Positions 19,465 to 40,200 of a DNA stretch of 52,479 bases are shown here, piece after piece. The translations under genes and the position numbers were made by a program. The notes below the pieces were generated by a model that searched no databases, was not told the origin of the DNA, and worked only from the letters and a program-made list of their open reading frames with translations. The first letter of the stretch is position 1. Every line of letters starts with the position of its first letter. The DNA comes from a virus: IMG/VR virus record IMGVR_UViG_3300045988_166053, one strand, 5' to 3'.

Positions 19465-19469
19465 TCTCC

Positions 19470-20833: not shown

Positions 20834-21307
20834 TTAGTCCAGGTAAGAGGCGATCTCTTCGATCAGCTCTTCCGGATCAACACTGAGGATGTTGCCGATC
20901 TCGAGAGTGTCGACACGGACAACCTTGGAGCCCTCGACGAAGCGCTCAACCTTGAACCACTCGAAGGCATCCTCGAAGTCAGAGATGACATCGTTGATCT
21001 TCTCGGACTTATCGAGCTCACGGATCTCACTGAGGATCTGCTTACCCTCAGCGACCTTCTTATCGAGGGTCGGAGTGTCAGCCTTGACAGTCGGCACCAT
21101 GCGAATGGACTTGCGCACGAAGCCGTCGAGGCTACGCTCGGACGTCGGCTCGGGCTGCTCGTCCAGGTACATCAGCTTCTGGACGCAGGTCTCCAGATCA
21201 TTGATCTGCTCGGCCACACCGTCAGGAAGCGCGACGACGTTGTCGTCATTGTCGATCAGATAACCATCGACGAACTTGAGATCGGACTTGAGATACATCT
21301 TAGCCAT
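20834..21307 (-). CDS. Acidic hypothetical protein.
   Basis: 157-aa ORF. Confidence 0.4.
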   Translation of the reverse strand: MAKMYLKSDLKFVDGYLIDNDDNVVALPDGVAEQINDLETCVQKLMYLDEQPEPTSERSLDGFVRKSIRMVPTVKADTPTLDKKVAEGKQILSEIRELDKSEKINDVISDFEDAFEWFKVERFVEGSKVVRVDTLEIGNILSVDPEELIEEIASYLD

Positions 21308-21337
21308 GGTATGTTCCTTTCTTTATGGCTTGGTTTT

Positions 21338-22099
21338 CTAGAAGGGAATGTCCTCGTCGTAAACCTCTACAGGGACTTGCGCTCTTTGCGCAACCTGAGG
21401 ATTCTGAGCCGGCGCTGCATACTGAACTGTTGCTCCGGGAAACTGCTGCTGCATGACAGCTGCCTGCTGCTGTGGCGTCATCACCGCCTGCTGCTGAGGC
21501 ATCATCGGCTGCGGCATAGCCTGCTGCGGAACTGGCGCCTGCATGGCTGGAGCCGGACGAGCAGCCTGCTGCGCCTGATACTCCTGCTGAACTTGCTGCT
21601 GATTGCGCTGCATAGATGCGGCAGAGTCAGTCACCTCATAGCCGAAGCCCTCGACTCGCGGCATCTTCTCGCCAATCTGGACAGACCAGGGACGAGGGTT
21701 AGACGCCGAGTAGCCGAAGCCTTGCGGCGGCTGCTGCGTAGTCACCGTGATGTGGTAACCCATGCAATCCGCAATGCTGGTAGCATTCGGATTGACAGCA
21801 AGGATAGCCTGCATCACCTGGTTGAACGCAGAGGTCGGACGCTTCTTGGAAATCGAGAAGGTCCAGTCGAAGCAGTTGCCCGCAGTATCGGCCACGGTGA
21901 ACTTGATGTTGCGCACGGGATTGCCGTCATCCCAGAACTTCGGCGCACCCTGCTTGCCATCCTGCGAGAAGTTGTGTGCGATCGGCGTGTCGATCCCGAC
22001 TACCTGTCCATCAAGGACCAACGAGTAGCCATCCTTCTCAGGACTGTGATAGTTCCAGGAGTTGCCGGAACCACCGCCGTTGAAGTCTAATACACCCAT
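21338..22099 (-). CDS. SSB-like protein. It has a Q/P-rich linker and a C-terminal DEDIPF tail; the N-terminal domain is atypical.
   Basis: The C-terminus ...VEVYDEDIPF mimics the bacterial SSB tail DDDIPF, with a long Gln/Pro-rich disordered region before it. Confidence 0.45.
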   Translation of the reverse strand: MGVLDFNGGGSGNSWNYHSPEKDGYSLVLDGQVVGIDTPIAHNFSQDGKQGAPKFWDDGNPVRNIKFTVADTAGNCFDWTFSISKKRPTSAFNQVMQAILAVNPNATSIADCMGYHITVTTQQPPQGFGYSASNPRPWSVQIGEKMPRVEGFGYEVTDSAASMQRNQQQVQQEYQAQQAARPAPAMQAPVPQQAMPQPMMPQQQAVMTPQQQAAVMQQQFPGATVQYAAPAQNPQVAQRAQVPVEVYDEDIPF

Positions 22100-22114
22100 G
22101 AGACATTCCTCTCT

Positions 22115-22429
22115 CTAGTCGTTGAATGCGTAGTTCAACGCATCCTCTTCACTACCATCAGGACCCCACAAGGGGAGATAGTTGAATACGGTTTTAATTT
22201 TATCATTGAAGTAGTCCTCGTCATAACGAGTCTCATCAATCGAGATCGTCTTGTCAGCGATCTTATCCTCAAGCAGCCTGCCTACGTTTTGCTGGAACTC
22301 CTCCTCATCGCAAGCTCCGTACTTGACCCAGGCCCAAATGCAGAAGTTGACCGCATCACAGTTGCGGGAACCTTTGCACATGAAGTCATGGTCCTTGAAG
22401 TAGTTCTTAAAGAACTTATCAGAATCCAT
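22115..22429 (-). CDS. Hypothetical protein.
   Basis: 104-aa ORF. Confidence 0.35.
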   Translation of the reverse strand: MDSDKFFKNYFKDHDFMCKGSRNCDAVNFCIWAWVKYGACDEEEFQQNVGRLLEDKIADKTISIDETRYDEDYFNDKIKTVFNYLPLWGPDGSEEDALNYAFND

Positions 22430-23217
22430 TACTCATGCTCCTTAATCCAATTGTCGATTGTAGATGCGAGTGCCGAGTAGTCCTCGACGAATGCGTCGTA
22501 TGCCTGACCGTAGTTCTCGGTCTTGAACATCTTGCCATTGTCGATTGTCTTGTCGATCATCATCTTGTAAAACTTAGCAAGCGGCAGCATGTCATACCCT
22601 CGGCTGGCATACTTGAGCACGCGCTCCCACTGACGCAGGTAACGAGCGACCTCCCAGGTGGCATAGTTGTAATAGCGGAACTGGTTTGGGATCGCCGTCA
22701 TCGGATCAGACTCCGACACACCGAGCACGTCGACCATGTCCTTTCGGACTATCTGCTGCTCACGCATATCCAGATAGTTCCCGGACAGGATGTCGTAGCC
22801 CTTCATGATGATGCTCATATCAAACGTGCCGAGTACCGCACCGACGGTATTGCACAGCTGACCACGATGATTCTTAGTGGAGACGTTTACAATCACGTCG
22901 TCATCATCGCTTCCGAACTTCAGAGTGATCAGCTTGCCACGACCATAACCACCATGGAGCAGGGAACCAATCTTGGATTCTTCGCCGGCCGTGAACTCCG
23001 GACGATCTCCCTTCGGCACGAGATTCATCTTGTTCATAAGGTAGCCCACTGCATAGCACTGAGCCTCACGGCTGTAGCAGAACACATCGATGTCGGGCTT
23101 GGTATCCCAGTTGTCGAAGTCGGTGATCTCACCGAACAGACTTCCGGTTATGCAACCATCGATGTCAGATTCTACGAGCTGCTGGAAACGCTTCCAGATG
23201 TCGTCTTTGAAAGACAT
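22429..23217 (-). CDS. Pol-beta-superfamily nucleotidyltransferase-like protein.
   Basis: GS...DFD/DID motif (CITGSLFGEITDFDNWDTKPDIDVF). The spacing is slightly off canonical. Confidence 0.35.
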   Translation of the reverse strand: MSFKDDIWKRFQQLVESDIDGCITGSLFGEITDFDNWDTKPDIDVFCYSREAQCYAVGYLMNKMNLVPKGDRPEFTAGEESKIGSLLHGGYGRGKLITLKFGSDDDDVIVNVSTKNHRGQLCNTVGAVLGTFDMSIIMKGYDILSGNYLDMREQQIVRKDMVDVLGVSESDPMTAIPNQFRYYNYATWEVARYLRQWERVLKYASRGYDMLPLAKFYKMMIDKTIDNGKMFKTENYGQAYDAFVEDYSALASTIDNWIKEHE

Positions 23218-23244
23218 TGTTCTCTCCGTTCATCAGTCTTTCGT

Positions 23245-23403
23245 CTATTCGTCGAGGTGCTCGTATCCACCTGCGGCTGCGAGCTCCTTAAGAGCCTTCT
23301 CCTTTTCCTCTTCGGAGTAATCATCGCTGTGCATGATCTCTCCGAATTGGGACTTGGTCATGCGCTTGTAAGCCATGGCCTTCATGAAATCGAGCAGGTT
23401 CAT
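23245..23403 (-). CDS. Small acidic protein (52 aa).
   Basis: Starts at the ATG overlapping the PrimPol stop (ATGA) after RBS GAGGAGGAAGGG. Confidence 0.35.
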   Translation of the reverse strand: MNLLDFMKAMAYKRMTKSQFGEIMHSDDYSEEEKEKALKELAAAGGYEHLDE

Positions 23404-24203
23404 CCCTTCCTCCTCTCGATGTAATCGAGCATGTAGTTCCATATCTCGTCCGTCATAGGTGACGGCTTGAGACCGTTGTAGATCTTGTTCTTGCAATGGC
23501 GCAGCGAGTTCGCCGTGTTGCCCACGATATCTATGTGAGCCTCGGGAAAGTGCATCGTCGGGATCAGCCTGTCTACCGAGAAGATCAGGTGATAGCTAGT
23601 CGGCAGAGCTAAGAGCTTGAGGTCATACGAATCAGGGCTCACATGATCGAGCACTATATCTCGTTTATAGAAGGACGCTGTTAGGTCCATGAGCGGAGCA
23701 AAGGCTTCGATGACATCGATGTCAAGCTCGCCCTCATGGTCACCGTCTACGTCTATCGCGATGAGCTTAGTGCCCTTGAGATTCTCTGATACGTATTTTG
23801 ACTTGACGACTTTCCCTCGGAAGATCCTCGAGAAATGCTGAGCATCAGCCAGGCTCATGCAACCGAGTGACCAACGGATCATCGGTCGCATGTTCTTATC
23901 CATCGGCACCCACCTGTTTGCAATCTCCGGCTGATTGAGATACGGATGAATCGGATAATCCGAATACGGAATAGTCTTCGACCTGAGCTCGCTCGGTATC
24001 ATGAGGGCAGACTGAGAACCTTGTTGGTACAGCTGCCTGTTATGCACGCCGTTCCAGAAGTTCTGTTCGTCTTTGCCTCTGATGAAATGGCCATTGGCAT
24101 AGACCTCGGATACTACATCCTCGATCTTTCTACCCTTCAGTCCTTGACGGTACATCCAGGTATAGATCGATCCTTCTTTCGGAGGGCACGGATCCTCTGT
24201 CAT
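23400..24203 (-). CDS. Archaeo-eukaryotic-primase-type primase-polymerase (PrimPol).
   Basis: Motif I LIAIDVDGDH (DxD) and motif II YHLIFSVD (sxH). Confidence 0.5.
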   Translation of the reverse strand: MTEDPCPPKEGSIYTWMYRQGLKGRKIEDVVSEVYANGHFIRGKDEQNFWNGVHNRQLYQQGSQSALMIPSELRSKTIPYSDYPIHPYLNQPEIANRWVPMDKNMRPMIRWSLGCMSLADAQHFSRIFRGKVVKSKYVSENLKGTKLIAIDVDGDHEGELDIDVIEAFAPLMDLTASFYKRDIVLDHVSPDSYDLKLLALPTSYHLIFSVDRLIPTMHFPEAHIDIVGNTANSLRHCKNKIYNGLKPSPMTDEIWNYMLDYIERRKG

Positions 24204-24206
24204 GTG

Positions 24207-25334
24207 TTACTCCTTCATGCACTTGGCCCAGCCAGTCTTGTATTCCTTCTCGCAGTTAGGCGAGCAGACATCTACCCACTGGGTAAAGCCAGTGCGATCC
24301 TTTGCGTACACGTGATAGCACCAGAGCTTGCCTACGCTCGGCGGATTCTCTTTGACGGCAGTGTTAATCACGTCATCATATCCGCTCCAGGGCGCATCGT
24401 AATCTCCAAAGGAGATAACGTTATCGAAGCTCCTGCCGCAGACATGCTCCTTGATGATCTTGCTGAACTCTTGGGCCTCCTGCCCACGAGGACACATTCT
24501 GCGTAGCTTGCTAGGCGAGGGCAGCTTGTCGCCCTTGGCAAACCACACGCTGTGCGCAGCATGTACGATGAGGTCAGCGTTGGCCTGCTCCCTCATGGTG
24601 TCTACCATCTTGAGAAGCGTGTCGGCTACGCCCCACGGGATTGATGCAGAGACATCCAGGATCAGCAGGTTCGATGACGGCAGTTCATTATCGAAGTTAC
24701 CGACGCAGCATCCGAGCTTCTTGTTATAAGAATCACGGAACCTTAGCGACTGCATGATGTTGTAGCGGATGTTGTCCTCGATCTCACCCAGGAACTTAGG
24801 CATAAGCCCCATCTCTGAGATGATCTCGGGATCAACCTTAGACAGACTGCTACCAAGGAAGTCTTCGATGCTGATGTTCTCTTCCTGCTTCGGCGAAGCG
24901 TCGCCACCACACCTGCGAAGAACATTCGCAGAGTCAGTTTGCACTTCGTCAAAGTCCTCGTCGACATCTTGACCAACTGGATCGAACTCATCACTGTCGA
25001 CAAGCTCAAGACTAGTGACGCTTCCGTTATTGATGTTCCATTCGCTGTCCTTCTCAACGGCATAGCCCACTGGCGGCGGAGTGATGACGGTGACTTCCCT
25101 GATCTTGCCACGCTTGATGCGGCACATCCTGTCCCAATCAACGCCAGGCATTGCCTTTTCCAACACAGGCAGCATGATGGAAAGGATCAGGTCAGTATCA
25201 GTTCCATAGAACCATTTGATGTATGGGATGCCAGAAGTGCGACAAGTGTCGACAGCTTCCTGATTCTGGCAGACATACACCTCGGGCAACGCAAGGTTAC
25301 CGAGTTTGAGCCTGTGCATCTTGATCATGTTCAT
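24207..25334 (-). CDS. vWA-domain protein with a MIDAS motif in its C-terminal half.
   Basis: LLILDVSASIP (DxSxS), followed by a helix and then the beta strand ADLIVHAAHS. Confidence 0.45.
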   Translation of the reverse strand: MNMIKMHRLKLGNLALPEVYVCQNQEAVDTCRTSGIPYIKWFYGTDTDLILSIMLPVLEKAMPGVDWDRMCRIKRGKIREVTVITPPPVGYAVEKDSEWNINNGSVTSLELVDSDEFDPVGQDVDEDFDEVQTDSANVLRRCGGDASPKQEENISIEDFLGSSLSKVDPEIISEMGLMPKFLGEIEDNIRYNIMQSLRFRDSYNKKLGCCVGNFDNELPSSNLLILDVSASIPWGVADTLLKMVDTMREQANADLIVHAAHSVWFAKGDKLPSPSKLRRMCPRGQEAQEFSKIIKEHVCGRSFDNVISFGDYDAPWSGYDDVINTAVKENPPSVGKLWCYHVYAKDRTGFTQWVDVCSPNCEKEYKTGWAKCMKE

Positions 25335-25344
25335 GTCCTCTCTT

Positions 25345-26274
25345 CTAGAGCTTCACTGACTCGAGCATCGGCTTGATGACATCGTCCCATTCATCCATGC
25401 TCATAAGCATGTTCATGAGGGTAGATGTATCAGACGTCTTTCCACTTGCAAGTCTATTGATCTCGCTGAGTACAACGATGTTCTCATCTTCTGTATCGCT
25501 TATGCCCTTGATGACTGCTTCAACTTTCTCAGTGAACTTGCTCATGCTGCTCGCCGAGACTCCCTTTGCAGACATGATGAGAGACTTGACGAGCCTGCTA
25601 TTGATGTGTGCATCCAACAGGAACTCTTCGAGACACTCGTCATCGATATTGTTCCTGATGAATGTGCAGAGCTTGGTCACTGTTCTCGGTGTCTGTGAGT
25701 TCCAACCTGCGACAGTGGTATCACAAGCATCGATCTCATTCTGCATACTGTCTTCGATGATGATGTTCTGGCTATCTCTCATGTACTGTTTCCACTCGGC
25801 AAAGCTGAACTGCATACCGATGAACAGGAACCTGTCACGGATAGCAGCAGGCAGCTGGCTCGGATTAGCCAATGGATTTGCGGCAGCCACGATCATGACA
25901 TCAGGCAAGGGCTTATCACTCATGAGCCTTCGCTCTTGGATCAGAGTAAGGCAGGCAGAAAGAACCTGCTGCTGACCCTGAAGCAGCTCATCGAAGAACA
26001 GGATGTCTCCGTCTTTCAGTGATGACAGACGAACGTGATCATAGACCGTCATGCCGCCGGCCTCCTTGTCAGGCATAGTGATGCCAGACACCTCGGACGG
26101 AAGGATCTGCGAGGCAATGATATGCACTACCTTCTTGCCTCGGTCCTTTGCATAGCGCTCGATCTCATGGGTCTTACCGATACCAGGACAACCCATGAAG
26201 CACGGCACGATCTGATCACGCACACCGTCTTTGTCGATCATCTCCAAGAAATGGTAGATGTCTTTTGTTTTCAT
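25345..26274 (-). CDS. AAA+ ATPase (MoxR/ChlI-like), partner of the vWA protein.
   Basis: Walker A GCPGIGKT, Walker B ILFFDEL, sensor-1 AAANP. Confidence 0.6.
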   Translation of the reverse strand: MKTKDIYHFLEMIDKDGVRDQIVPCFMGCPGIGKTHEIERYAKDRGKKVVHIIASQILPSEVSGITMPDKEAGGMTVYDHVRLSSLKDGDILFFDELLQGQQQVLSACLTLIQERRLMSDKPLPDVMIVAAANPLANPSQLPAAIRDRFLFIGMQFSFAEWKQYMRDSQNIIIEDSMQNEIDACDTTVAGWNSQTPRTVTKLCTFIRNNIDDECLEEFLLDAHINSRLVKSLIMSAKGVSASSMSKFTEKVEAVIKGISDTEDENIVVLSEINRLASGKTSDTSTLMNMLMSMDEWDDVIKPMLESVKL

Positions 26275-26289
26275 TCTTCTCTCCGTTCT

Positions 26290-26781
26290 TTAGTACCTTT
26301 GGCAAGGCTCGTCGGTCTCAGCGACTATCTTGCTAACGATTTTCTTAGCTTTCTCTGTGAAGCGTACTGTTGTACTCACCTCCTTAATTGCAACGATGTT
26401 GTCACCGTGCAATTCGAGGTACTCGTAGTTGATAGTCTCGACAGCTAACAGGAATCTCATCATCGTTCTGGCTAGATAGTCATCAGTAAAGCGGAAGCTT
26501 AGGATCTTGCCGACTGTCTTATGGAAACAACCTTCGAACTTGATGTGCCTGTCGTGGTCTTCATAGCGATTCGAATCGATATATTGGACCTCGTCTCTCA
26601 TGCTTAACGTGAAGTCCACGTCATCATCCGTGTCGTGGCCTGCAATGAGACTCGTAATGGTGCAATAGGACATCGGTATCACAACGCTATGACCTATTGC
26701 TTCATCGCCAGCATACAAATAGATCGAATTATCTTCGATGACTATTTGTATTCTTGTGGAGACAAGTTTAATGTCCATCAC
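26290..26781 (-). CDS. Hypothetical protein; paralog B of a tandem pair.
   Basis: Shares YLYAGDEAIGHSVVIPMSYC, NYEYLELHGDN and EKAKKIVSK with the upstream gene. Confidence 0.5.
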   Translation of the reverse strand: MMDIKLVSTRIQIVIEDNSIYLYAGDEAIGHSVVIPMSYCTITSLIAGHDTDDDVDFTLSMRDEVQYIDSNRYEDHDRHIKFEGCFHKTVGKILSFRFTDDYLARTMMRFLLAVETINYEYLELHGDNIVAIKEVSTTVRFTEKAKKIVSKIVAETDEPCQRY

Positions 26782-27277
26782 TTTTCTCCGTTCTGAGCTT
26801 CTTGCTAACGATTCTCTTAGCCTTCTTCACGGCGTTTATCGTCGTGCTTATCTCTTTGATCACAGTGGTGTCTCCACTATGTGACCTTAGGTATTCATAG
26901 TTGAGGTTCTCGATGGTATCCAAGAACTTCATCAGTATCTCGGCTAAGTCATTATCGATGAAGTAGCTGTTCATGATGTTGTCGATTGTCTTATGGATAC
27001 AGTACGGAAACCTGATGTTTCGATCACTAGGGAATCTGATACGTCGATTAGCAGCAGTCTGCTCCTCGAGATATGCACGCTCGCCAGCACGCTTCAGGCC
27101 CAAAGTAAATGTTATACCGTCGTCCGGATACGTACCGTCATCGATGTCCACGATAGAACAATAGGACAAAGGTATTACGACGCCTTCGCTATCATCACCT
27201 TCGACGGTGTACAGGGCAATCATGTTAGCCTCGATCTCTACGTTGAGCTTCGAGGCAATGAGTCTGACTTTCTTCAT
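26768..27277 (-). CDS. Hypothetical protein; paralog A of the tandem pair.
   Basis: Start at the internal ATG with RBS GGAGAGAA. Homologous blocks ALYTVEGDDSEGVVIPLSYC, NYEYLRSHSGD and KKAKRIVSK. Confidence 0.5.
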   Translation of the reverse strand: MKKVRLIASKLNVEIEANMIALYTVEGDDSEGVVIPLSYCSIVDIDDGTYPDDGITFTLGLKRAGERAYLEEQTAANRRIRFPSDRNIRFPYCIHKTIDNIMNSYFIDNDLAEILMKFLDTIENLNYEYLRSHSGDTTVIKEISTTINAVKKAKRIVSKKLRTEKSDGH

Positions 27278-27333
27278 TTCTCTCCGTTCATAGAAACAAG
27301 GGGGACGAGACGAACCTGCCTCCCTTTTGGTTA

Positions 27334-27633
27334 CTAACCGAACAGGCCATACCTGCTGATATCTTGCAGCAGGAACAAGCCCATGGCGATGCCTTCGATC
27401 ACGATGATCCAGAGGACGAACTTGATGATGATCTTGAGCACGAGCTTCACGACCTCGCCGGCAGTCATGTGCTTGAACCTGACAGACCAAGGTAGCTCAT
27501 CCATCCGCATGGCGTGCTTCGGCGAGATCAGCTCCGGATACTGCTGGTCCATATAGGATTCATAGCCAGCCATGCCAGCATTCTTACGATCGTGATACTG
27601 TGCCAGCTTTGCAGTCTTATCGGTATTGTTCAT
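27334..27633 (-). CDS. Small membrane protein with a C-terminal transmembrane helix.
   Basis: Start at the internal ATG with RBS GGAG. Hydrophobic stretch VVKLVLKIIIKFVLWIIVIEGIAMGLFLL. Confidence 0.45.
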   Translation of the reverse strand: MNNTDKTAKLAQYHDRKNAGMAGYESYMDQQYPELISPKHAMRMDELPWSVRFKHMTAGEVVKLVLKIIIKFVLWIIVIEGIAMGLFLLQDISRYGLFG

Positions 27634-27637
27634 TTGG

Positions 27638-28030
27638 TTATGCTCCAATCTGATTGTTAGGATGTTCAACTGTCCATTCGGAGAACTCGTCGACGAACAT
27701 CTCGGACATTGCTTCTTCCCAGCATTTCATTGACCTCTGCACTTTGCAAAGCGTGGATACAGAGACATCCTCACCGTGCAAGATGCACAGGAATCGAGAC
27801 GTATCGATGACCACGCGACGCACGCCGATCTGCATATCGAGTAAGCGTTGAGCGTAATCAGGGTCGAGAGAGATTTCGATCTTCGATAGCTCATTGAACT
27901 TGTCAGGACGATTGTCCATGATGCACGCAGACTTGAGAGACGCGATGGCACACGTGAAGTCCATCATGATATTGATGTGCGTGATGCCGTCTTCACGGTT
28001 GATGATTCGATTGGCGAACTTGTCTTTCAT
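27638..28030 (-). CDS. Hypothetical early protein.
   Basis: 130-aa ORF. Confidence 0.45.
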   Translation of the reverse strand: MKDKFANRIINREDGITHINIMMDFTCAIASLKSACIMDNRPDKFNELSKIEISLDPDYAQRLLDMQIGVRRVVIDTSRFLCILHGEDVSVSTLCKVQRSMKCWEEAMSEMFVDEFSEWTVEHPNNQIGA

Positions 28031-28251
28031 GATTCACTCCGTTCTTCCGGATTCACCGGATAAAGAAAACAAACGATTTTGTATTTGCACACGCGATGAC
28101 CAATGCACGCCCATTAACAGCTGTACGCCTGCGATCTCGGACAAGCCGCAACCGGCTAGGGCCGGTTGTCCGCACACCGACAGCCATGGGCTGCATCGCG
28201 TGAAAAAAATAACCCTGACGGCCGGATCCGAAGATCCGACCGCCCTGGTTT

Positions 28252-28551
28252 CTAGATGCACAGCTGAGCTAGCTCATTGACGTGCTTCTTGGCATCGTCA
28301 TCCAGATCCGGATAGCTGACGCCATAGATGCCTTTGGCCAGATTAGCGTAGGCTGTTGCCAAGCGTTCTGACTTGTCATCAGGATTAGCCCTGCGATCGT
28401 TCTCGATCTTTTCGGCACGAGCTTGCTCCTTGACGACTTCTGCCATTGCAATGTTGATAGGGTCTTCACGGTCTGCCTTGACCATGAACTTGTAGGCGAT
28501 CATCGCCTGAGGTGACATGTTGTTCAGATCCTCCGGTTTGACGCTGATCAT
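28252..28551 (-). CDS. First gene of the leftward operon; hypothetical.
   Basis: RBS AAAGGAG. An AT-rich putative promoter region lies upstream. Confidence 0.5.
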   Translation of the reverse strand: MISVKPEDLNNMSPQAMIAYKFMVKADREDPINIAMAEVVKEQARAEKIENDRRANPDDKSERLATAYANLAKGIYGVSYPDLDDDAKKHVNELAQLCI

Positions 28552-29470
28552 TTTGATCTCCTTTCGTCAGGATTTATCTTGCGTAATTTACACACTTGAT
28601 TGTTTGGTTGCTTGGTTATTAGGGCTGTTGTCTTATCAGCCACACCAGATAACCAGTTTATCCATCACAAAATACACACATTTACCTAAGAAACCAGGGA
28701 TATAGGGGGTTAGTATATATTAGGATTATTAGGATTTTTTGTTTTCTTTATATCTACCCGCGCTAATTTTTCCAGCTCTCATAAGAACCCTGGATACCAT
28801 GCTCACAGGAAAACCGGACGGACGAACCCTTCCAAGCGGCCAGGGTTTCCCGACTCTCCACGGCCTATCAAGTTTGTCTTATTTATCTTTGTTTATCTGA
28901 TTTCAAATGCTTGTATAGATGGCGGGGGAGGGTAACTGAGATCGGCACCCCACCATTCGCCGCCATCTAACCATACTTGTTGCCCGATCCCCCGTGACCT
29001 CAAAGGGTAACTGCAAATCCGCTGTCGCGGATTCTGCTGCACGTCTTACTGAGATCATCATGGCCAACAGGCATAGCTCCGCCTATGGTACGTAATCCCC
29101 TTATTCAGCTTTTCTAGGCTGCCTTGCTACCACGTCCTCCAAGGAACATAAGGTTAAGGTCTGTCCATGACCGGTATCCGCCCTCCCGTTTTGCCTGCGG
29201 GGAAGGGCTCCCCGTGCGCGCCCGGCGATAAGGCGCGCCTTGAGATCATGGACCTCATCGGCATCCCCACGGCTTAGCCTCGGCTCTCGCTTTATGTCCA
29301 TGCGTACACAGACGGGTTCATTCCGTGGGGAACTTCAATCCTCGGTTATTCAGACTCACTGGCCTCTTTTAAGCCGACCGGGAACGGACGCTATAGTCGC
29401 CATGGAGGAGTTCCGCCTCCAAGTGATGAGTTCATTTTACCATCGCCCTGTCACCGACAATCCGAGTCCT

Positions 29471-29492
29471 ATTATTCTTTTTCGAGAATAAT
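29471..29492. repeat. 22-bp element attattctttttcgagaataat, the left copy of an inverted pair.
   Basis: Its reverse complement equals 29624..29645 apart from one mismatch. The element is also internally palindromic (7-8-7). Confidence 0.8.
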
Positions 29493-29576
29493 GACATTCA
29501 AAGCAGTCGGTGTTATCATTTCTCCTGTGGGGATACGGTCGACCGGGAACTAGACTGCGATCCTTGCAGACACGGT

Positions 29577-29616
29577 GGCCCTCGGAGGAGTTGATCCTTC
29601 GGGGGCCTTTCCTTTG
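29577..29616 (+). terminator. Terminator-like hairpin with a 12-bp stem (ggccctcggagg/ccttcgggggcc) followed by tttccttt, lying inside the inverted-repeat-bounded segment.
   Basis: The stem contains two G-U pairs and is followed by a T-rich tail. Confidence 0.4.
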
Positions 29617-29623
29617 CGTCATG

Positions 29624-29645
29624 ATTATTCTCGAGAAAGAATAAT
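29624..29645. repeat. 22-bp element attattctcgagaaagaataat, the right, inverted copy.
   Basis: Reverse complement of the left copy with one mismatch. The flanking inner sequences are also partly similar. Confidence 0.8.
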
Positions 29646-29958
29646 GCACCCAAGCATCAGAGGTGGTAAGATATCCAAGACGCCCGGATACGGGCACCTA
29701 GATGAGTACGGCGGTCCTTTGCCCTTTTTCCGCTAGCTTGTCCTGGTGACCGATCTGGGCGTCCATCTACATCGGGAGGACTGGATACCATTTAGCAAAC
29801 CCCATTTAGCAACCTTGATGGTGTCAACGAACGTTGCGAACGTCGGAGCAGTTAGCGTCAGTCCTCCCGGCCATTTCGGCGCCTTATCCATTTGAGAAAA
29901 AAAGAATAACGACTTAGACTCTTTGATAGACATGTAGATCGCATTCTAAGGACGACGT

Positions 29959-30618
29959 ATGATAGAGAGCCTTTTGTATCCGAAGAAGCTAACGGAGCCG
30001 CCGCAACTTCTTGTAGATGTAGAGTCGCTGTTTCACAAGGGCGGCAATATGAATACAAGCCTAGTAAGTTTTGTTTACTATTCGTCTAGGAACAAGGCAG
30101 TGAATTATCGACTTATCAGTGTCGGTGAAGATGGCCCGGATACCTTTAGGGTTGGCTTCGTAGCAGACGTAACTGGCATAACTCGTTCAGGCGCTGTGAT
30201 GGCTACCCTAGCGGTACCATTCCAGGACCTAGAAACCGAGATCATGTTGGTCAAGTGTCACGGATGGAGTACGGGGGGGGCCGCCATAATGGGTACGCCA
30301 GATAAGACCGTTGAGAAATCATCGGCATCGATGATAAACCCACCTGAGGTCCTCCCGGCTCCAATGGGTATGCCAGATGGGCATGAATACCTTTTCAAGA
30401 TGAAGGGCTCCGAACTTGAAGGTGGGAAACAGTTCTCATCTTCTGGATCGGGCTACAGCATTTACTTCGACTACATGAACTCCAGGGGTGATATTGGTAC
30501 TGAGTTCCCCGAGATATTTGACCATTATGCTACTGTAGCTCTTGAGGTTATCGTCAAGGTCAAAGTCTACCACTCTAATCTTATGTCTGGATTTCGTCTT
30601 GGTATCGCGCAACTCTAG
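29959..30618 (+). CDS. Hypothetical early protein; intact paralog. It contains a G8 tract at 30273..30280.
   Basis: RBS AAGGA. 219 aa. Homologous across its whole length to the corrected reading of 30641..31295. Confidence 0.55.
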   Translation: MIESLLYPKKLTEPPQLLVDVESLFHKGGNMNTSLVSFVYYSSRNKAVNYRLISVGEDGPDTFRVGFVADVTGITRSGAVMATLAVPFQDLETEIMLVKCHGWSTGGAAIMGTPDKTVEKSSASMINPPEVLPAPMGMPDGHEYLFKMKGSELEGGKQFSSSGSGYSIYFDYMNSRGDIGTEFPEIFDHYATVALEVIVKVKVYHSNLMSGFRLGIAQL

Positions 30619-30640
30619 TTCTCTAAGGATGTGACGACAG

Positions 30641-31295
30641 GTGATAGAGAATCTTTTATGGCCAAAGAAATTAACAGCTCCTCCGCAACTTCTTGTAGAT
30701 GTAGCTGCACTGTTCAGAGGAAAGTTTGGTAATTTCACCATACCTCTAGTCGGTTTTGATGTCTTCTCAGGCACAGAAGTAAACTATCGACTTATTGACG
30801 TCAGCTCGGATGGCTCGAATACCTTCAGGATCGGCTTAATAAATAAGCTAATAAGAAGCAATGGCAGGTCAGTTATGCGCATAGCAATACCGTTCCAGAG
30901 CATTGCAGCCCAGATTGATGAAATCAGGTGCCATGGATGGGACACCCCCCCCCGCCAGCTTATTGAGTACGCCGAGCAAGACTGAAATAAGAAAAAGTTC
31001 GAGCCATATTCAGCCTACGTTAAATCAAATTCGGTTCCGTTTAGATGGGCATAGCTCTCTGTTCAAAATGAAGAGCGACGAGTTTGAAGGTGATGGCTCC
31101 GGGAAACAGTTCCAATCGGCAGGATTGTACAGCGGTCTTGAGTATGGAATTAGCAATAATATCGTCGCTGCCGGACAAGAGTTTACCGAAATGTTCGATA
31201 ACTACTCTGATAAGACGATGGCTCTTGAGGTTATCGTCATGATAAAAGTCTACTCAGGCACTTATCCCTCTGGATTCCAAGTCGGCATCGTGTAG
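30641..31295 (+). pseudogene. Frameshifted paralog of 29959..30618. The frame breaks inside a C9 tract (30945..30953); a C8 tract would give an intact gene of about 218 aa.
   Basis: ORFs 30641..30985 and 30903..31295 both align to the upstream paralog (MIENLLWPKKLTAPPQLLVDV..CHGW / ..LFKMKSDEFEG..ALEVIVMIKVY). The switch between them occurs exactly at the homopolymer. Confidence 0.6.
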
Positions 31296-31411
31296 CCCAA
31301 TTCTCCCTGGCTAGGCTATTGACAGCCTAAAAAGCCGCAGTGCTATCCTAGTCTTCAGAAGGCCCCGGGTCTGCCGAGTCCCCGGGGCCTTCCCTTATAT
31401 CTGGGAGGAAT

Positions 31412-31918
31412 ATGGCGCGTAGCTACGACATAGCCGAGATCATGACGAGTGACGGCGGCCTCAATGAGCAGGTCCGCCGTAAGATCAACCTGAACTTCAG
31501 GCGCGTCGTCGAGATCGCCACGCGCGAGAAATCCGCTTCCGACGGAGCAATGCTGGGAAGCAAGATCCAAGATACAGTTGAATCCTACATCGAGTCGATA
31601 CTCCCTGACCTTATCAAAGAGATCGAGGATAGCTCATTCGATCGCATGTATCCAATAGGATGCGTCATCGTGACACACACGTCGTCGGATCCAAGGTTGA
31701 CTCGCGGCAAGTGGGAAGCTGTCACGTCAGGTAAATACGTTCTCACCGCCGGCTCTGGATATCCAGTCGGATCGACTGGTGGAAGCAATATGATTGAAGC
31801 CGGGAATCTCCCGAATAACGCTAACTCTCTCAGCGTCGATAGTGGCACATCTGAATCTGAGCAGAAGCCATTCATGCCAGAATACATCGCACTTCTTTTT
31901 TACAGGAGGATATCGTAA
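31412..31918 (+). CDS. Hypothetical protein.
   Basis: 168-aa ORF with RBS GGGAGGAA. Confidence 0.45.
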   Translation: MARSYDIAEIMTSDGGLNEQVRRKINLNFRRVVEIATREKSASDGAMLGSKIQDTVESYIESILPDLIKEIEDSSFDRMYPIGCVIVTHTSSDPRLTRGKWEAVTSGKYVLTAGSGYPVGSTGGSNMIEAGNLPNNANSLSVDSGTSESEQKPFMPEYIALLFYRRIS

Positions 31919-33910: not shown

Positions 33911-33986
33911 GCCTCCGTAGCTCAGAGGATAGAGCACCGCTCTCCTAAAGCGGGTGTCGACGGTTCGAGTCCGCCTGGGGGCACCA
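33911..33986 (+). tRNA. tRNA-Arg (anticodon CCU), with an encoded CCA.
   Basis: Cloverleaf folded by hand. Acceptor stem gcctccg/tgggggc with two G-U pairs, D arm tagctcagaggatagagc, anticodon loop ctCCTaa, T loop ttcgagt. Confidence 0.8.
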
Positions 33987-34032
33987 TCGCCGGGTAGGGG
34001 GAAGTGATCCGCCCCCCTAACCTGGCGGCCAT

Positions 34033-34107
34033 TCCCTCGTAGCACAAAGGTAAGGGCAGTCGATTTATAATCGTCAGACCTGGGTTCGATTCCCAGCGGG
34101 GGTACCA
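34033..34107 (+). tRNA. tRNA-like gene, probably tRNA-Ile (anticodon UAU), with an encoded CCA. It has three stem mismatches and may be degenerate.
   Basis: Canonical T arm ctggg-TTCGATT-cccag, U8 A9, D loop with GG, anticodon loop ttTATaa (U33, A37). Mismatches at 1-72, 12-23 and 28-42. Confidence 0.45.
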
Positions 34108-34127: not shown

Positions 34128-34169
34128 AGGGCCGCTCCTGTTGACATGCCGGGAGCGGCCCTCCTTTTC
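34128..34169 (+). terminator. Rho-independent terminator after the tRNAs.
   Basis: agggccgctcc...ggagcggccct, a perfect 11-bp stem followed by ccttttc. Confidence 0.6.
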
Positions 34170-34221
34170 ACCTGCTACAATCAATTCTCAGAAGCACATC
34201 CTCGTAAGACGGAGGAACGAT

Positions 34222-37200
34222 ATGGCATTGGACAAATACGCCTTCTCTAAGATCGCCAGGGGCGAGAACCCCACGGCTGGCGCACAGGGAGGCGGCAATA
34301 AGTTCAACGCGAGGGAATACCTCGGTGGTGGCGCTGATTCCGGCATGTCCGAGAACTTCATGTCCATGAGGCAGAAGATCGCCGATGAATCCGACGCCCG
34401 AAGGGCCGCGGCTGAGCCTCCTGCTGGCAGGAAGAAGGCCGATGGACGAGACTATCTAGCCGCCACAATGGGCAAGATCGGCGAGAACATCATGGGTCTC
34501 GCTGGAGCTGAGGAAGCTGCGAAGACCGAGTCGAAGCTCGATGACGTCGGCTCCTTCCTCTTGGGCCTGCCGCTCGGAACCATTTCCGCACCGTTTACCG
34601 GCGCGTCCCAGCTTTACGAAGCGGCCTCTGGCCACAGGGCCACTGAGATGGACGATGCTGGCTATATCCCGAGCCAGGACCTCGATCTCGGACAGAGGCT
34701 TGCCACCGGTGCGTCCGGTGCCATTAACGCAGTCGGCCCGTTCTTCGGCGGCTCTGCTGGCATGTTGAGGGGCGCAAAGAACGCCGCTCTCATGGGAGGC
34801 GCCAAGGCTGCTGGCCTCATGGGTGCCGAAGATGCCGCAAAGAAGATGGCTGGCAGGGCTATTGAGTCCTCCGCAAAGTCTCTTGCCAAAGAAGAGGCGA
34901 AGGGCTGGGTCGGCAGGCTTGCATCCGAGGCCGCAGAGGAAGGCCTCGAAGAGTTTGTCCAGTCGCCGCTCGATGAGATCCGTGACGGCACTCTTGATGA
35001 CGGCTGGTTCAACAGGGCTGTCGAGGCTGGCGCGATGGGCGCTCTCGGCGGCAGCATCATGTCCGGCGCCGGAATGGCTCTCGATAGGACGTTTGGCAAG
35101 ATGGCCAATCCGTCCAACCAGTCCTCAAACAGGATGCCTCCGCTTTCACCTGACACTAAGACTATCAAGGAGCGCAGGGGCTTCAGTACCGATGCGACAT
35201 CCATGGTGTCCGATGCAAAGGACAGCATCAGGGACACACTCGCTGAGCAACAGAAGGTGCCCGGTGCGGCCTCCGCACTCCAGGTATCTTCTGGGTTGCG
35301 CAACCATGGTCTCGATGACGGAACCGTTGGCTCTGGTCTAGTCGAGAAGATCTTCTACTATCCTGATCGCAGGGATATGGAGACCGGCGAGATCCAGAGC
35401 TCCGCAAAGACAATTGCAGACTGGTTCGGTGTCACGACTGATGACATGCACAGGATTCTGTCTGGACCGAACAAGACTGCTGAGCTTAACCAGCTCGTGC
35501 AGAACATGAAGGCCAACGGTCAGTCCACAAGGCTGCTCGTCGGTCGAAACCCTGATACCAACAGGGGCCTCTATTGGATTGACGTGGACGAGATCGTCGA
35601 TTCCGACTACATCGATCTGAACCCGTTGACGTATTCCTACGTGAAGTCCGATATCGATGGCGATAAGGCGCAGCTCTACTTCGACCGTAACAACCAGGCA
35701 TCTCTCGGCTATGTATCCGAGAACATCGTTGCTCCCGAGGCCATGGACCAGAAGACGGGCCAGCCCGCCTCGAACGTCGATATCTCCGACTACGGATTCA
35801 TGCCTGCGACCATCGGTGATAAGAGCACGGCTCAGCTGACCAAGGATGACGTCAGGCGCATCTTCACTGAGGCTATCGATGAGACCGTCGGTACAAACTC
35901 CGGCATTGATGCCGTCTCCTATGCCGACAGGTGGGCCGATGAAGTCGCCTCCAGCAAGGATTCCAATAAGGCGAACTTCCTCAATGAGATCAACGCCGCC
36001 ATCAAGAACTATCTCGCCAACGGTGGTCAGCTGCTCCCCGGTGCGCACCCTGGCACCGCTGTATCGAAGATCATCGGTAAGATGCAGGCAGACACTTCCG
36101 CCGGCTTCTCTCGTGCCATGGATGCAGCTGCGGCCGATGTCAGGCGTGCAAATGAGATCGTCAGGCAAATGGTCGACATGATCCCTGGAGTCCTGGCTGA
36201 GTCCAATGAGGGTCGAGGTATGTCGTCCAAGGGCGACCTTGGTGGCATTCGATCTTATGCTGAGGCTGCCACCGACATGCTGAACGCCGCGTATGCGAAA
36301 TACAACAAGGCTGCAACGAACGTCGGCTTCCGCCAGGACGGCAGGTTTATCCTGGAGGCCCAGTCCAAGCTGCTTCAGTCGATCGACTATACGCTCCGCA
36401 ACCTCCAGACCGCCATGTCCAAGTCGGGTTTGGGCGTATCTGAATCTGTGTATCAGATGCTCGTTGACATCTGCGTGAGGCAGGTTGAGCGCGGAGGCGA
36501 CGTCACCACGACGATCTCCGGCCTGTTTGACGCAGCTCTCGCGAATGGCTCGATGACTCGCTTCAGGAATGAAGTCGGGCACACGAAGATCCAGAATGGC
36601 GAAGACCTCGAAGTCCTCAAGCGCGTGTTCAGGGATGAGTACGCAAAGCTGTACGATGCATACGAGAAGGCAATCCTCACCGACAACACGGCCAACGAGA
36701 ATGGCATGAAGCTGCCCGGTGAGATGGATAAGCCTGAGCTTCTCGAGTCTGACGGCGATGCTGCTCTCGCAAGGTACTTCAAGCGTGCCTTTGGGTCTCA
36801 GTACGGCGAGGACATGGTCGAAGGCTGGCCGAAGCACTTCGAGGGCAAGACCTGGAACGAAGCTGTGAGGATCGTCTCCCAGGATGCAAGCTATGACAGG
36901 ACGCAGTTCGTCGATCTCGATAATGGATTCCAGCAGCTTTTCAACATGATGCTGGCTGACGAGGGCAGGCAGTCTAGGCAGGTATCCATAAGGATCAACA
37001 GCGAAGTCGAAGCATCCGTACGTATGTTCGCTGATCTCCGTTCTAAGTGGGAAGCCAATGGCAAGAAGCTCCACGGAGCCGATTTCGCCATGGCAGAACA
37101 GCTTGTCACAAAGGTAAGGAGCATCATCGGCCAGAGGTCCGCCGATAAGATTGGCCTGGTCTCCGTCGATTCGTTCTTCGATTCTGGCTGGGGTGAGATG

Positions 37201-40200
37201 CTGTCCTCTGGAAACCAGGAGCTCGCCATGAAGGCCATCTGCGAGATGGCAGTAAGCGCGAAGTATGACGGCGTCATCGCAAAGCTGGATCAGGCTCTAA
37301 AAGAGAAAGACGGCCTTGTGGCCGACAAATACAGGATGGCCGCGCTGAACATGCTTGGCGATCTTGTTGATACATCCAGGGTCGATGACTACATCATCTC
37401 CGAGATAGCAGACGCCGCAAGCAGCATGGATGCCCTGAAGAATGCGGAGACGTTCTCCAGGCTCTATGACGCCATAACGAGTGATGATCCGCGCCTGACG
37501 TTCGGTGTGATCTCGAGCACCTGGGATGCAGGTAACGGAGATAACGCAAGCGTGTTCCTGACCGACGTGCTTACGACGCCCGGCTCCACGTTCTCCAATG
37601 CAGATCTTTCGAGCAGGATGAACAGGGCCGCCTCGAGCCAGCGTACCGCTGACCAAATCAACAACGAGATGAACATCGAGAGGTGGAACGCTGTATTCAG
37701 CGCGGCCACTGATGCCGGACAGCAGGAGCGCTATGCCAGCGCGATAGACGACTTGCTCAATGACCGCACCTATGAGGTCGGCAATGATGCGATCGGATCC
37801 GCAGTCTACGCTGCAACCACGATCGCAAACTCCTACAAGGAAAAGGGTGTCGTCCCGAGGTCCGCTCAGATCATGTACGCCATCTCCGAGATCTCCAGGC
37901 ACGGAGCCCTATACGCATGGTCCGATAAGCTGTTCGGTCTCTCGCAGGGCAGGATCACCAAGAGGCAGTTCCTCGATAACCCCACGCTTATCGCGAGGCT
38001 CATGGTCGATCCGAAGTTCTCGATCACCATTACCGACTGGGAAAGCGGTCAGTTCAACAACTTCAGCCGTGACGATCTGATCAGGGATGTCATCCCCGAT
38101 TGGAACGGTGGCCCGATCACCCTTAATGTCTACAACAAGATATTCACCAAGTATCCCCAGCTCATCTCCATCATCGCCCCGCTGTCGATGTCGGTCGGCG
38201 TGAACGAGAACTCTGAGTCCACTGTCACCAAGACAACGACAGACTCCGTAGACAAGGCACTCCTCAACCGTGTCAGGGAAGTCATGGACATCAACGAGGA
38301 TGCCGATAACATCACCAAACATGGGTCTGAGGCTAGGAAGCGCGTGATGCGCAGGACCAAGCTGTTGCTCATGGATCACGTCGAGTTCATTCCTGAACTC
38401 TGCCGAATGATGGGTGATGTCGACGGAAGGCTCACGCTGAGCGAAGCGACCAAGAGGTCGAGCAAGCTCGTCGATGATATGTGCAACTACTTCATCGATC
38501 TCGCGATGTCCGGCGAGGGGACCAAGTATGTCGACATGCTTGCAGAGTCTTCTGCCGATACATTCAACTCCGTCATGGGGACAATCAGTGAATCCTTCCG
38601 CGCTGCGATGGAGATAGCTTCGCTCGAAGGCGAGGTGCTCGATAGGGCCGATGACAGGAGCCTGTCCAGTCGAGATGCGCATATCAAGCACATGTCTGAG
38701 AGCATCGTGAGCAGCACGATAAACAAGTTTGCTGCTGATAATACGGCCGGTCTCACGTCACTTTTCAACAAGGCGTCAAAGAAGTTCTTCGACGAGATGA
38801 ACGGCGTCGACCAAAGGTTCGATGAATACATGCACGACCTCGACGAGCTCGAGACGATCATGAGCACCGTATTCGACCTGTATGTCGACAACAGCACCAC
38901 CAGGGCACAGATAGTCGACGAGATCAATCAGGGCCTGGATACCCAGCTCAAGATGATCGATGACAACCTGCTTGTCGATACCGAGGGCAAGACCGAAGCT
39001 CAGATCAAGGCCGAGGCAGACAACGTCCGAGAAGCGATCAAGAATGAGCTGACCGTCGATAATATCGACAGCCAGGTCACCGCGATAGCCAACAGCTTGC
39101 CGACGGCCGGCGGCATACTGAATCCTGATGACAAGCTCACCGGGTTCATCACGATAGACGACTTTGGCAATGGCACCGACGGCGCAAGGAACCTCGTCAA
39201 AGAGAAGATCTCCGAGATCTCCAGGAGCTCGAACTTCAACCTTGGAGACGGAGAGCTGTCCGTCGATGAGACCATGGATAAGATCGATGCCATCTGCGAC
39301 GAGATCGTGAAGAACGACGGAGTGCTCAACGAGGAGATCAAGAACAAAATCAAGACAGCAATGTCTTTCTGGAACTCCGTCGCTATGCGCGATTGGATGA
39401 TGGACAAGAACCTTCGAAGCGGCACCATCCAAAACGTCAACATCTTCAACGCTGTGGACAGGCACAACCAGTTCGTCCTCGACATGCGCGATGCCATCAG
39501 GTCTGACATGATTGATAGGGGAGTCGATCCGAACCTCGTCGACCTGACCGGCGAGAGGCCGCACTACCCGCATCAGGACTTCTCTGATCCCACGCTCGAC
39601 CTCATGGCGAACAGGGCGATTGTGAACTCCACGAGGGGCGGCGCCTCTACCAACGTCGGACTCAACGGTGCAAAGACTCGCGCGTATGCCGGATTCGACT
39701 TCATCCCGAGGGACTACCGCTCGCCGGTTGCTCCTATCGAGCTTGATTATAACGGGCTGATGGACCTCGTTAAGCAGGATGGAAGCTCTACTGGATCTGC
39801 CGGATATAACAGGTTCATCGGTGCAAAGACGTGCATCGGTGGTCCGTGGACCCAGAGCCCTGATCAAAATGGCCAGTGGGGCTGGGAACTTGGCACGTTC
39901 ACCGAGCGAGATCTCAGTGACATGCAGGCTGATCCGACCAAGAAGGTTCTCATCTTCGACCCGATCATGTCTCCCAACGGTATCGATATCAACTGCACGC
40001 ATGACGCATACAATGCCAACGGCTGCGATTTCCAGATGACCTTGGCCATGGTTGGACGACTCCTCGATGGTACGCAGGAGGGCATGGCGCTCAAAACCGC
40101 CAAGACGATCGGCAACGTGAATCACATGTCCCAGGACGAGCTGAAGATCGACGGACTTGATTACGGTTCCAACTCTACTGATATGTCCGCGCTCAATAGG

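Follow-up and report, generated by a model that had tools for sequence, protein, structure and literature searches.

A candidate new class of large structured non-coding RNA in the control region between the divergent gene arms of an uncultivated human-gut phage

The DNA analyzed here, a window of 52,479 nt (IMG/VR record IMGVR_UViG_3300045988_166053), holds a complete phage genome of ~52.3 kb, the ends of which overlap by 141 nt; positions 1-141 repeat 52339-52479 exactly, as would be seen if a complete genome had been assembled as a circle or in circularly permuted form. Its genes form three blocks, one on the plus strand (48-10545), one on the minus strand (10816-28551) and one on the plus strand again from 29959 onward, the last of which carries lysis genes, two tRNAs and an open reading frame (ORF) of 4125 amino acids (aa). 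The stretch 28552-29958, from which the leftward early arm and the rightward arm diverge, is bounded by the genes 28252-28551 (minus strand, encoding a protein of 99 aa) and 29959-30618 (plus strand). It is free of genes, as the original prediction had stated, since the longest ORF has 86 aa and none is conserved. We consider that this stretch is probably a compound control region arranged around the gene for a new large structured non-coding RNA (ncRNA) on the minus strand.

All the features noted earlier in the stretch proved to be real, at or close to the positions given for them. The AT-rich block at 28690-28760 has a GC content of 0.32 (0.20 at 28712-28757) against 0.54 for the genome, while the remaining 1.2 kb, which had been called GC-rich, reaches only 0.52, slightly under the genome mean. 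The hairpins gatggcgg...ccgccatc (28916-28933/28952-28969), GCGCGCC/GGCGCGC (29216-29222/29232-29238) and ccccacgg/ccgtgggg (CCCCACGG at 29265-29272, CCGTGGGG at 29324-29331) are all present. As well, the two modules that had been described are a true, degenerate duplication, in which the motifs CGACCGGGAAC and GGAGGAGTT and a 22-bp palindrome are each repeated. The tandem CCATTTAGCAA occurs at 29788-29812, within a variable segment, and its second copy is absent in three IMG/VR relatives aligned there.

The phage has no cultured relative: DNA searches with the region alone and with 7.8 kb around it against 50,697 deposited phage records (INPHARED) found no similar sequence, and a protein search of INPHARED phage records with a neighbouring protein of 375 aa found no match. 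Its close relatives are metagenomic contigs only, of ~50-53 kb, and those with a source label come from the human gut. With the 99-aa early gene as an anchor, human-gut assemblies yielded 25 distinct versions of the region, whose identity to the window is 81-99% (retrieved loci are denoted by L numbers), while distant phages were reached through the neighbouring gene of the 375-aa protein, at only 28-35% protein identity. The 219-aa right-hand gene, which sits in a variable cassette, found no relatives when used as a query, and a scan of GTDB genomes with the 99-aa family found no relative and did not identify the host.

Compared with the window, the non-coding DNA of L001 has an identity of 93.7% and that of L002 one of 95.2%, whereas third codon positions of nine neighbouring genes are 74-90% identical in the same two comparisons, which indicates purifying selection comparable to that on first and second codon positions. 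Conservation covers a core at ~28630-29430, decays to the right of ~29430 and is gone past 29790. Coding hypotheses for 28552-29958 were rejected, because the one ORF of appreciable length (66 aa) is frameshifted, stopped or start-less in L007, L012, L014 and L019, because variable columns counted by position modulo three (58/78/61) show no three-base periodicity, and because none of the indel lengths among relatives (1, 4, 5, 28 and 37 nt) is divisible by three. Public gene calls of 36-96 aa nevertheless lie inside the conserved stretch (L013 4661-4912; L015 3121-3411; 1775-1885 in L033, L037, L038 and L040). Such ORFs, for instance those of 83 and 96 aa in L013 and L015, are most likely spurious calls on structured RNA or leader sequence, and the annotation can be corrected in this respect.

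That the region has more structure than chance would give is borne out weakly by folding energy alone and clearly by comparison with relatives. In an alignment of 24 sequences, the minus-strand consensus fold comprises 192 pairs in 31 helices, with 99.0% of cells paired. Changes on both sides were found in 14 pairs, against 4.7 ± 1.5 in column shuffles (0 of 500 reach 14) and 0-3 in controls in which the partners were slid by 1-3 columns. When the same pairs are read on the plus strand, only 82.8% are paired, and the polymorphic pairs in the minus-strand reading include 284 G·U cells against 17 A·C cells. RNAalifold also ranks the minus strand above the plus strand (-480.6 vs -446.5; 271 vs 250 pairs; 24 vs 18 covarying pairs). 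Moreover, a strand-neutral search for covarying stems gave 29264-29272/29323-29331 as its best helix, with two double changes, and 11 A·C mismatches of this helix on the plus strand become G·U pairs on the minus strand. UACG and GAGA/GAAA tetraloops are present on the minus strand only, and such strand-specific loops, together with stem changes mediated by G·U, are explained neither by DNA cruciforms nor by a plus-strand RNA. A plus-strand RNA running from a promoter in the AT-rich block to a terminator at 29607 looked acceptable in RNAalifold at first but was then ruled out, since it omits the best-covarying helix, scores lower than the minus strand and turns the G·U pairs into mismatches.

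The alignments therefore place the hairpins in one minus-strand RNA of ~650 nt (28770-29427), which would be read from ~29427 to ~28770, as the early arm is. Of the two explanations offered originally, that of a large structured non-coding RNA thus accounts best for the hairpin-dense part, though on the minus strand and for ~28770-29427 only rather than for the whole 1.4 kb. This part is non-coding, has many covarying helices on one strand and keeps its structure across divergent genomes, which are the marks of a large structured RNA.

The 5' multi-junction domain of the RNA, M1 (29254-29408), includes motif A and the two tetraloop hairpins; 7 of its 42 pairs have changed on both sides, and 1 of 420 cells is broken. 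Motif A (GUCCGUUCCCGGUCGGC ... AACCGAGGA; 29332-29393), which includes helix P4 (29377-29386/29336-29346), is the most widely conserved part of the RNA. The UACG (UNCG) tetraloop hairpin (29296-29313) has the stem GUCUGUG/CAUGGAC in the window, GUUCAUG/CAUGGAC in L001 and GCCCGUG/CACGGGC in L019, all of which pair on the minus strand; G·U, A-U and G-C are exchanged here, always via G·U intermediates, and on the plus strand the window copy would contain two adjacent C·A mismatches. The GNRA tetraloop hairpin (29283-29290) carries GAGA in 22 sequences and GAAA in 2. The outer of its two pairs, which is not the loop-closing one, is flipped from G-C to C-G in L011 and L012, and L059, a distant locus, likewise has CC-GAGA-GG at this hairpin. 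Both tetraloop hairpins are enclosed by the 9-bp helix 29323-29331/29264-29272, which shows double changes from CG to AU and from AU to GC. Long-range helices (29201-29214/28819-28833 and 29193-29200/28858-28864), predicted rather than proven, would close the central and 3' domains; they appear in both minus-strand folds and are 100% paired, with G·U pairs that are invariant and no double changes. In the hairpin at 28917-28968, which corresponds to gatggcgg...ccgccatc, the alignment shows a conserved stem base and a variable tip that is replaced with indels of 4-5 nt while pairing is kept.

The 3' end of the RNA would lie in or after a hairpin of the F block, at ~28757-28790. The F block (28757-28790, minus strand), the probable 3' end region, is conserved in 15 distant loci and comprises the 3' strand of the hairpin 28809-28818/28771-28780, a conserved GGAAAAAUU and then GCGCGGG. 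In L052, which belongs to a sister clade, an equivalent hairpin with a GGAAA(A) loop is followed by a U-run and was scored as terminator-like, which suggests a discrete RNA, whereas the window's clade is without the U-run, so that read-through into the early genes is possible. Similar sequences also occur in L051, L054, L062, L064 and L046. The A-rich spacer (28736-28756) and the G block, both on the minus strand, are nearly invariant in all 25 close relatives. The G block begins with two copies of ATCCTAATA (28718-28735), and TATACTAA plus CCCCC (28705-28717) follow, giving TATACTAACCCCC after the repeats. The G block lies ~150 nt upstream of the first early gene, that of the 99-aa protein, and its tandem 9-mers and CCCC run are recognisable in distant relatives. 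It was rejected as a sigma-70 promoter, because neither hexamers nor spacing fit and distant relatives do not keep the candidate -10; the tandem 9-mers could be a regulator site, a promoter for another factor or the core of an origin. The rest of the stretch on this side (28552-28704, minus strand) is the 99-aa gene's upstream region and 5' untranslated region (UTR), with the ribosome-binding site GAAAGGAG at ~28558-28565, and its conservation is less even than that of the RNA core.

Sequence profiles (nhmmer) recognised the F/G block in the 15 distant loci, always in equal orientation, and it is the most widely conserved sequence in the family; apart from it, plain nhmmer found only scattered motifs in these loci. 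A covariance model of the 155-nt 5' domain (R1) matched L059 at 6197-6290 (E = 0.002), at the syntenic position and with many compensatory changes; the UACG hairpin, the GAGA hairpin and the enclosing helix are all rebuilt there from different sequence. A descriptor search of the distant loci for the UACG and GNRA sub-domain found it in L059 only. Helix P4 is present in five distant loci as CCCUGA/UCAGGG, CCUCGA/UCGAGG, CCCCGA/UCGGGG or CCCGGA/UCCGGG, i.e. as four Watson-Crick versions that are 100% paired (6/6), and the covariation score of the 12-pair motif A in the five loci was reached by 1 of 500 shuffles. A second model, R2, trained on the five distant loci only, had its sole match in the 52-kb window (E ≤ 1) at 29393-29332 on the minus strand (18.2 bits, E = 0.04). 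R2 also found the window-clade site in L011, L012 and L020, as well as new sites at the syntenic place in L050 (E = 7.5e-9) and L055 (E = 0.0025). By these sequence and covariance matches, domains of the RNA recur at the same position and in the same orientation in phages whose proteins are ~30% identical, so that the RNA is a family-level feature of this phage group and not a peculiarity of one clade.

Outward-firing promoters, which had also been proposed, were found back to back at 29434-29519 and not at the AT-rich block. The putative promoter of the large RNA, P_L (29434-29442, minus strand), is of the extended -10 type (TG-g-TAAAAT), and transcription would start at ~29427. ATGGTA[A/G]AATG is invariant in every relative that covers P_L while the flanking sequence drifts, and counterparts occur in L059 (TGCTAGAAT, at the aligned position) and L055 (TGATACAAT, 823 nt upstream of the F block). 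P_R (29491-29519, plus strand), which faces away from P_L and lies 50-80 bp further right, consists of ATGACA, a 17-nt spacer and TG-t-TATCAT, and was found by a consensus scan (10/12 matches plus the TG). In 14 sequences its TGACA and TGnTAT[C/G]AT are invariant and its spacer is rewritten at a constant length of 17 nt, a pattern typical of real promoters. The first copy of the 22-bp palindrome (ATTATTCTTTTTCGAGAATAAT, 29471-29492) lies between P_L and P_R, where it touches the -35 of the latter, and its half-sites TTCT.../...GAA are kept in divergent relatives; a second copy (ATTATTCTCGAGAAAGAATAAT, 29624-29645), found by a repeat search, follows the terminator described next, and a partial third copy is located at 29899-29909. 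These palindromes are operator-like and presumably bind a protein.

P_R would drive a short rightward transcript of ~90 nt (29526-29615, plus strand) that starts near 29526 and ends at a terminator (29577-29615) composed of a hairpin (29577-29607; 13 pairs, 9 of them G-C) and TTTCCTTT. A strong hairpin of different sequence is kept in L011, L012, L019 and L020. Downstream of P_R and the terminator are genes for a holin-like protein (XhlA match in relatives) and an endolysin. In L012 and L019, a gene on the strand of the large RNA, opposite to the short unit, stands just past the block, and these two genes are mutually homologous; a similarly placed ORF of 161 aa in L011 has no match and may be spurious. 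The short unit is therefore not simply a late-operon leader in L012 and L019, which suggests a role of its own, and the block is more than a spacer between divergent promoters.

The duplicated modules connect the two putative transcripts. GTGGGGA (29326 and 29527), CGACCGGGAAC (29375 and 29540), GGAGGAGTT (first copy at ~29404) and the palindrome occur in one shared order in the sets 29326-29492 and 29527-29645. The first set falls within, or adjoins, the DNA that encodes the 5' part of the large RNA, with its palindrome just upstream of the RNA start, while the second set is in the short rightward unit. Since the two RNAs would be read from opposite strands, 29412-29323 of the large RNA has complementary counterparts in the short RNA, in collinear order and limited to three blocks (7, 11 and 9 nt). 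In all clades both copies keep ACCGGGAA unchanged, and ACCGGGAA and UUCCCGGU are candidate pairing blocks. Matching variants in both copies (GGGTAC in L001, GGGCGAGT in L012) could reflect selection for pairing or gene conversion between relics of a duplication. RNA duplex energy, used as a test of the short RNA and its target, was no better than for shuffled sequences and cannot decide between them.

Several points weigh against the reading of the stretch as the gene for a large RNA. Thermodynamic folding does not single out the region, so that the case rests on the comparison with relatives: the minimum free energy (MFE) of the minus strand is -243.9 kcal/mol against -230.8 ± 9.3 for shuffles, a modest z of -1.4, while the plus strand has z = -0.7 and an MFE 29 kcal/mol higher. 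The close clade is shallow, most sequences being 94-99% identical, and many helices, including all long-range ones, never vary in it. The strand test is partly circular, since its fold comes from the minus strand itself, and the G·U asymmetry amounts to only 40 vs 22 in those helices that were predicted for both strands. The matches in distant phages are partial; with default filters R1 finds L059 alone, with filters off in four distant loci it adds L057 at E = 0.45, and an alignment by sequence only retains 58% of pairs in L059 against ~40% in slid controls. As well, both RNA ends and expression itself are deduced from the DNA, the complementarity between the short RNA and its target may be a relic of tandem duplication, a trans-acting role as an 'ornate RNA' is suggested by analogy, and, as no terminator separates the RNA from the 99-aa gene in the window's clade, the RNA could be a leader rather than a free RNA.

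This last point leads to a rather unlikely explanation, in which the RNA is a cis-acting structured leader, i.e. a long 5' UTR of the early operon that acts not in trans but on expression of the 99-aa gene and those that follow, through processive antitermination, control of translation or stability. The RNA lies directly upstream of the 99-aa gene on the same strand, P_L stands directly before the structured part, and the window has no minus-strand terminator-like site in 29427-28552; homologues of the 99-aa gene occur beside type I-E cas operons, and such genes are often tightly controlled. A length of ~650 nt with ~30 helices, however, far exceeds known bacterial and phage leaders, the sister-clade RNA is followed by a hairpin and a U-run, and the family-wide G block, ~150 nt ahead of the gene, has the look of a start region in its own right. 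Moreover, the RNA is better conserved than its supposed target gene (identity in L013 is 96% for the non-coding sequence and 77% for the 99-aa protein). An origin primed by RNA, in the manner of ColE1 RNA II/RNA I, was considered as well, in which the large transcript would run into the AT-rich, repeat-bearing F/G block, stay hybridised there and prime DNA synthesis under the control of the short RNA; such an origin would unite the two original explanations. The promoter indeed has, ~650 nt downstream, an AT-rich block (GC 0.20) that holds tandem 9-mers and is preceded by GCGCGGG and then an A-run, and the F/G block is the family's most widely conserved sequence, but the tetraloops and conserved junctions over 650 nt exceed the needs of known pre-primers, and the terminator-like hairpin of the sister clade stands in front of the AT-rich block. 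The cumulative GC-skew minimum at 29-30 kb, which would suit an origin, follows just as well from the change of gene orientation. Though the small RNA complements the 5' part of the large one and shares matching variants with it in L001 and L012, it is not an overlapping antisense RNA, and its short-repeat complementarity has the duplex energy of shuffles. No polymerase, primase or initiator was recognised among 39 different proteins scanned, which would make an RNA primer attractive but is weak evidence, as most proteins of the phage are without annotation. Taken together, we regard such an origin as improbable.

A purely DNA-level element, whether an iteron-type origin as put forward originally, a packaging site or a cruciform-rich spacer, with no functional RNA, is very improbable. 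In its favour are the two tandem copies of TATTAGGAT in the AT-rich block, the phased repeats (TTTATCT-like) at 28873-28900, palindromes that are good protein-binding sites, and several public contigs that end inside 28710-28941; these ends, though, are biased by retrieval, as all contigs had to carry the adjacent gene. Instead of an iteron array, with at least 3-4 direct repeats of ~17-22 bp, the region has only two exact 9-bp tandem copies of TATTAGGAT with a degenerate third, and CTTGGTTG x2.9 (8 bp), and no Rep-like gene was recognised among the proteins scanned. Stems that tolerate G·U but not A·C are a property of one single strand, UNCG and GNRA loops are RNA motifs, and the structured part is framed by promoter-like elements, all of which speak for RNA and not for DNA. 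It is scarcely credible, finally, that the element is a divergent member of a known large RNA family (GOLLD, ROOL, HEARO, OLE or a group I/II intron), which its phage context and size would recall, or a decayed or recoded protein gene: Rfam 15 at gathering score returned two tRNAs only in the whole window, and neither ORF conservation nor codon periodicity was found.

If the stretch is the gene for a large RNA within a compound control region, as we favour, the large RNA would be the first product of the leftward early arm, made by the host RNA polymerase, and by analogy with GOLLD/ROOL it might act as a folded particle itself rather than as a DNA site or mRNA. A regulator that binds the palindromes would govern how transcription is divided between the leftward and rightward directions, the short rightward RNA might pair with the 5' domain of the large RNA through the three complementary blocks and thereby modulate it, and read-through of the terminator would feed the lysis and structural genes. 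Going further, it is possible, though doubtful, that the locus is an RNA-based switch of a kind undescribed for phages, with either a pre-primer that fires a host-dependent F/G origin under antisense control or an ornate, possibly multimeric, particle gated by the small RNA and the palindrome regulator.

The 99-aa gene (28252-28551, minus strand) has homologues of 132 aa on apparent bacterial chromosome contigs (L004-L006, L009) that carry cas operons, a cation-efflux gene and HicA. These homologues adjoin type I-E CRISPR-Cas operons (Cse2, Cas7, Cas5, Cas6, Cas1, Cas2 with an RNase_T domain, and Cas3 HD) and also stand beside ADP-ribosylglycohydrolase genes. The chromosomal DNA is 81-84% identical to the window at 28400-28586 only, i.e. 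it shares DNA with the window only leftward from 28586. The 99-aa gene may be an anti-defence gene or may reflect a recent exchange between host and phage. The 221-nt gap after it (28031-28251) is 94-96% conserved, and a terminator-like hairpin at 28217-28244 (minus strand; GGCGGTCGGATCTTCGGATCCGGCCGTC, then a T-poor tail) suggests that the gene may be a short transcription unit of its own. Seven contigs (L010, L017, L018, L021, L028, L024 and L008) end within the region, at 28710-28941, 29023 and 29258, mostly at AT-rich repeats or at the 28917-28968 hairpin. Such breaks may be an assembly effect or a physical DNA end in a sample that is biased, having been retrieved through the adjacent 99-aa gene or, for L024, through a DNA pattern from inside the region.

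To the right of the second palindrome, the leader of the rightward arm (29646-29958, plus strand) is conserved as far as 29790, and there in the close clade only, and is variable at 29790-29958, where a promoter scan found a weak promoter-like site (29892-29920). Relatives are 94-99% identical to the left of 29790 and 35-86% beyond it, and L001 is without 29790-31301. The segment 29790-31300 is a variable cassette in which paralogous genes were gained, lost or inverted (L001, L003, L012, L013, L015, L019 and L020); there are none in L001, one in L003, and genes on the opposite strand in L012 and L019, and 29884-29938 of the window matches L012 in inverted orientation. The paralogues share an N-terminus (MI/ENL(L/I)YPKKL...) and have divergent C-termini, as seen in the 219-aa protein and a frameshifted copy of 114+130 aa. 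By its sequence this segment looks like a shuffled or inverted host-range cassette. A 168-aa protein further right (31412-31918, plus strand) has a weak match to a tail protein (phrog_6465); its first 41 residues are ~90% conserved in relatives and its C-terminus is replaced (variants of 143-197 aa), a pattern typical of a receptor-binding protein.

The neighbouring proteins have no Pfam or PHROG match except for a MoxR-type AAA ATPase (309 aa), which is paired with the conserved 375-aa protein (24207-26274, minus strand); this pair is syntenic throughout the phage family. The 4125-aa ORF (34141-46518, plus strand), which follows the two tRNA genes and has ~4100 aa in relatives, found no match among Pfam, PHROGs and PDB sequences. 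The idea that it is a virion RNA polymerase like those of N4 or crAss-like phages, which would imply hairpin DNA promoters, was dropped for that lack of a Pfam, PHROGs or PDB match. The structural arm contains tandem-repeat coding sequence, collagen-like and other (3438-5246, 5536-6270 with 5798-6083, and 7371-7508), with 45- and 90-nt repeats of the GXY type and a Pfam Collagen match, and these sequences probably encode fibre proteins.

Among known systems, the arrangement is similar to the ColE1 type, known from enterobacterial plasmids and not from phages, in having a structured RNA of ~550-700 nt with its promoter upstream of an AT-rich site, like RNA II, a G-rich stretch and then an A-run close to its presumed 3' end, and a small RNA of ~100 nt complementary to the 5' part of the large one, like RNA I. 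Unlike in ColE1, the small RNA unit (29526-29615) lies beside its target and outside the large RNA, which would begin at ~29427, and does not overlap it. In phages P4 (CI RNA, seqA/seqC) and P1/P7 (c4 RNA, a2/b2), blocks of a short RNA are complementary, collinearly, to sites in the early leader, and the short RNA here likewise carries several collinear complementary blocks. The immunity RNAs of P4 and P1/P7 are, however, processed from their target's own transcript, whereas the short RNA here would have its own divergent promoter and terminator, and its target would be a structured RNA of 650 nt. P_R, followed within ~90 nt by an intrinsic terminator upstream of lysis and structural genes, also recalls lambda pR'/tR' (6S, Q). 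Unlike in lambda, no Q-like antiterminator was recognised among the 39 proteins scanned, and with an opposite-strand gene after the unit in L012 and L019 (in L011 an unconfirmed ORF), it cannot serve late genes there.

Bacterial and phage ncRNAs of more than ~500 nt with complex conserved folds are very rare, and rRNA, RNase P, group II introns, OLE, GOLLD and ROOL each proved biochemically unusual. The original prediction had suggested an RNA of the GOLLD/ROOL kind near tRNAs. A cmscan of 28300-30200 against Rfam 15 (E ≤ 10, permissive filters) gave only His_leader (19.6 bits) and Mu-gpT-DE (16.6 bits), chance-level matches against thresholds of 49 each, and neither GOLLD (RF01998), ROOL (RF03087), HEARO (RF02033) nor any other Rfam 15 family reached its gathering score; the tRNA genes, tRNA-Arg (CCT) and tRNA-Ile (TAT) at 33911-34107, are ~4.5 kb away with lysis genes between. 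In kind, the large RNA still resembles GOLLD and ROOL in being phage-borne and non-coding, several hundred nt long, and rich in helices, multi-stem junctions and conserved unpaired nucleotides, while it differs from them in matching neither model, in not adjoining tRNA genes and in its place as the first element of the early arm, within a promoter/operator switch. GOLLD, ROOL and OLE form RNA-only homo-oligomers, as seen by cryogenic electron microscopy (PMC12286853). Catalogues of structured RNAs in phages contain motifs of 30-151 nt only, to which the large RNA could not be mapped (PMC10690425), and Aca and 5'-UTR motifs are small hairpins that are not comparable (PMC13551039). With no Rfam family and no match in the published phage RNA catalogues checked, the large RNA is a candidate for a new class, carried by a family of ~52-kb uncultivated human-gut phages that turned up in dozens of independent metagenomes. 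Its defined setting, as the first unit of the early arm with a promoter/operator switch and a small complementary RNA, allows concrete experiments of the kind that were long lacking for GOLLD and ROOL.

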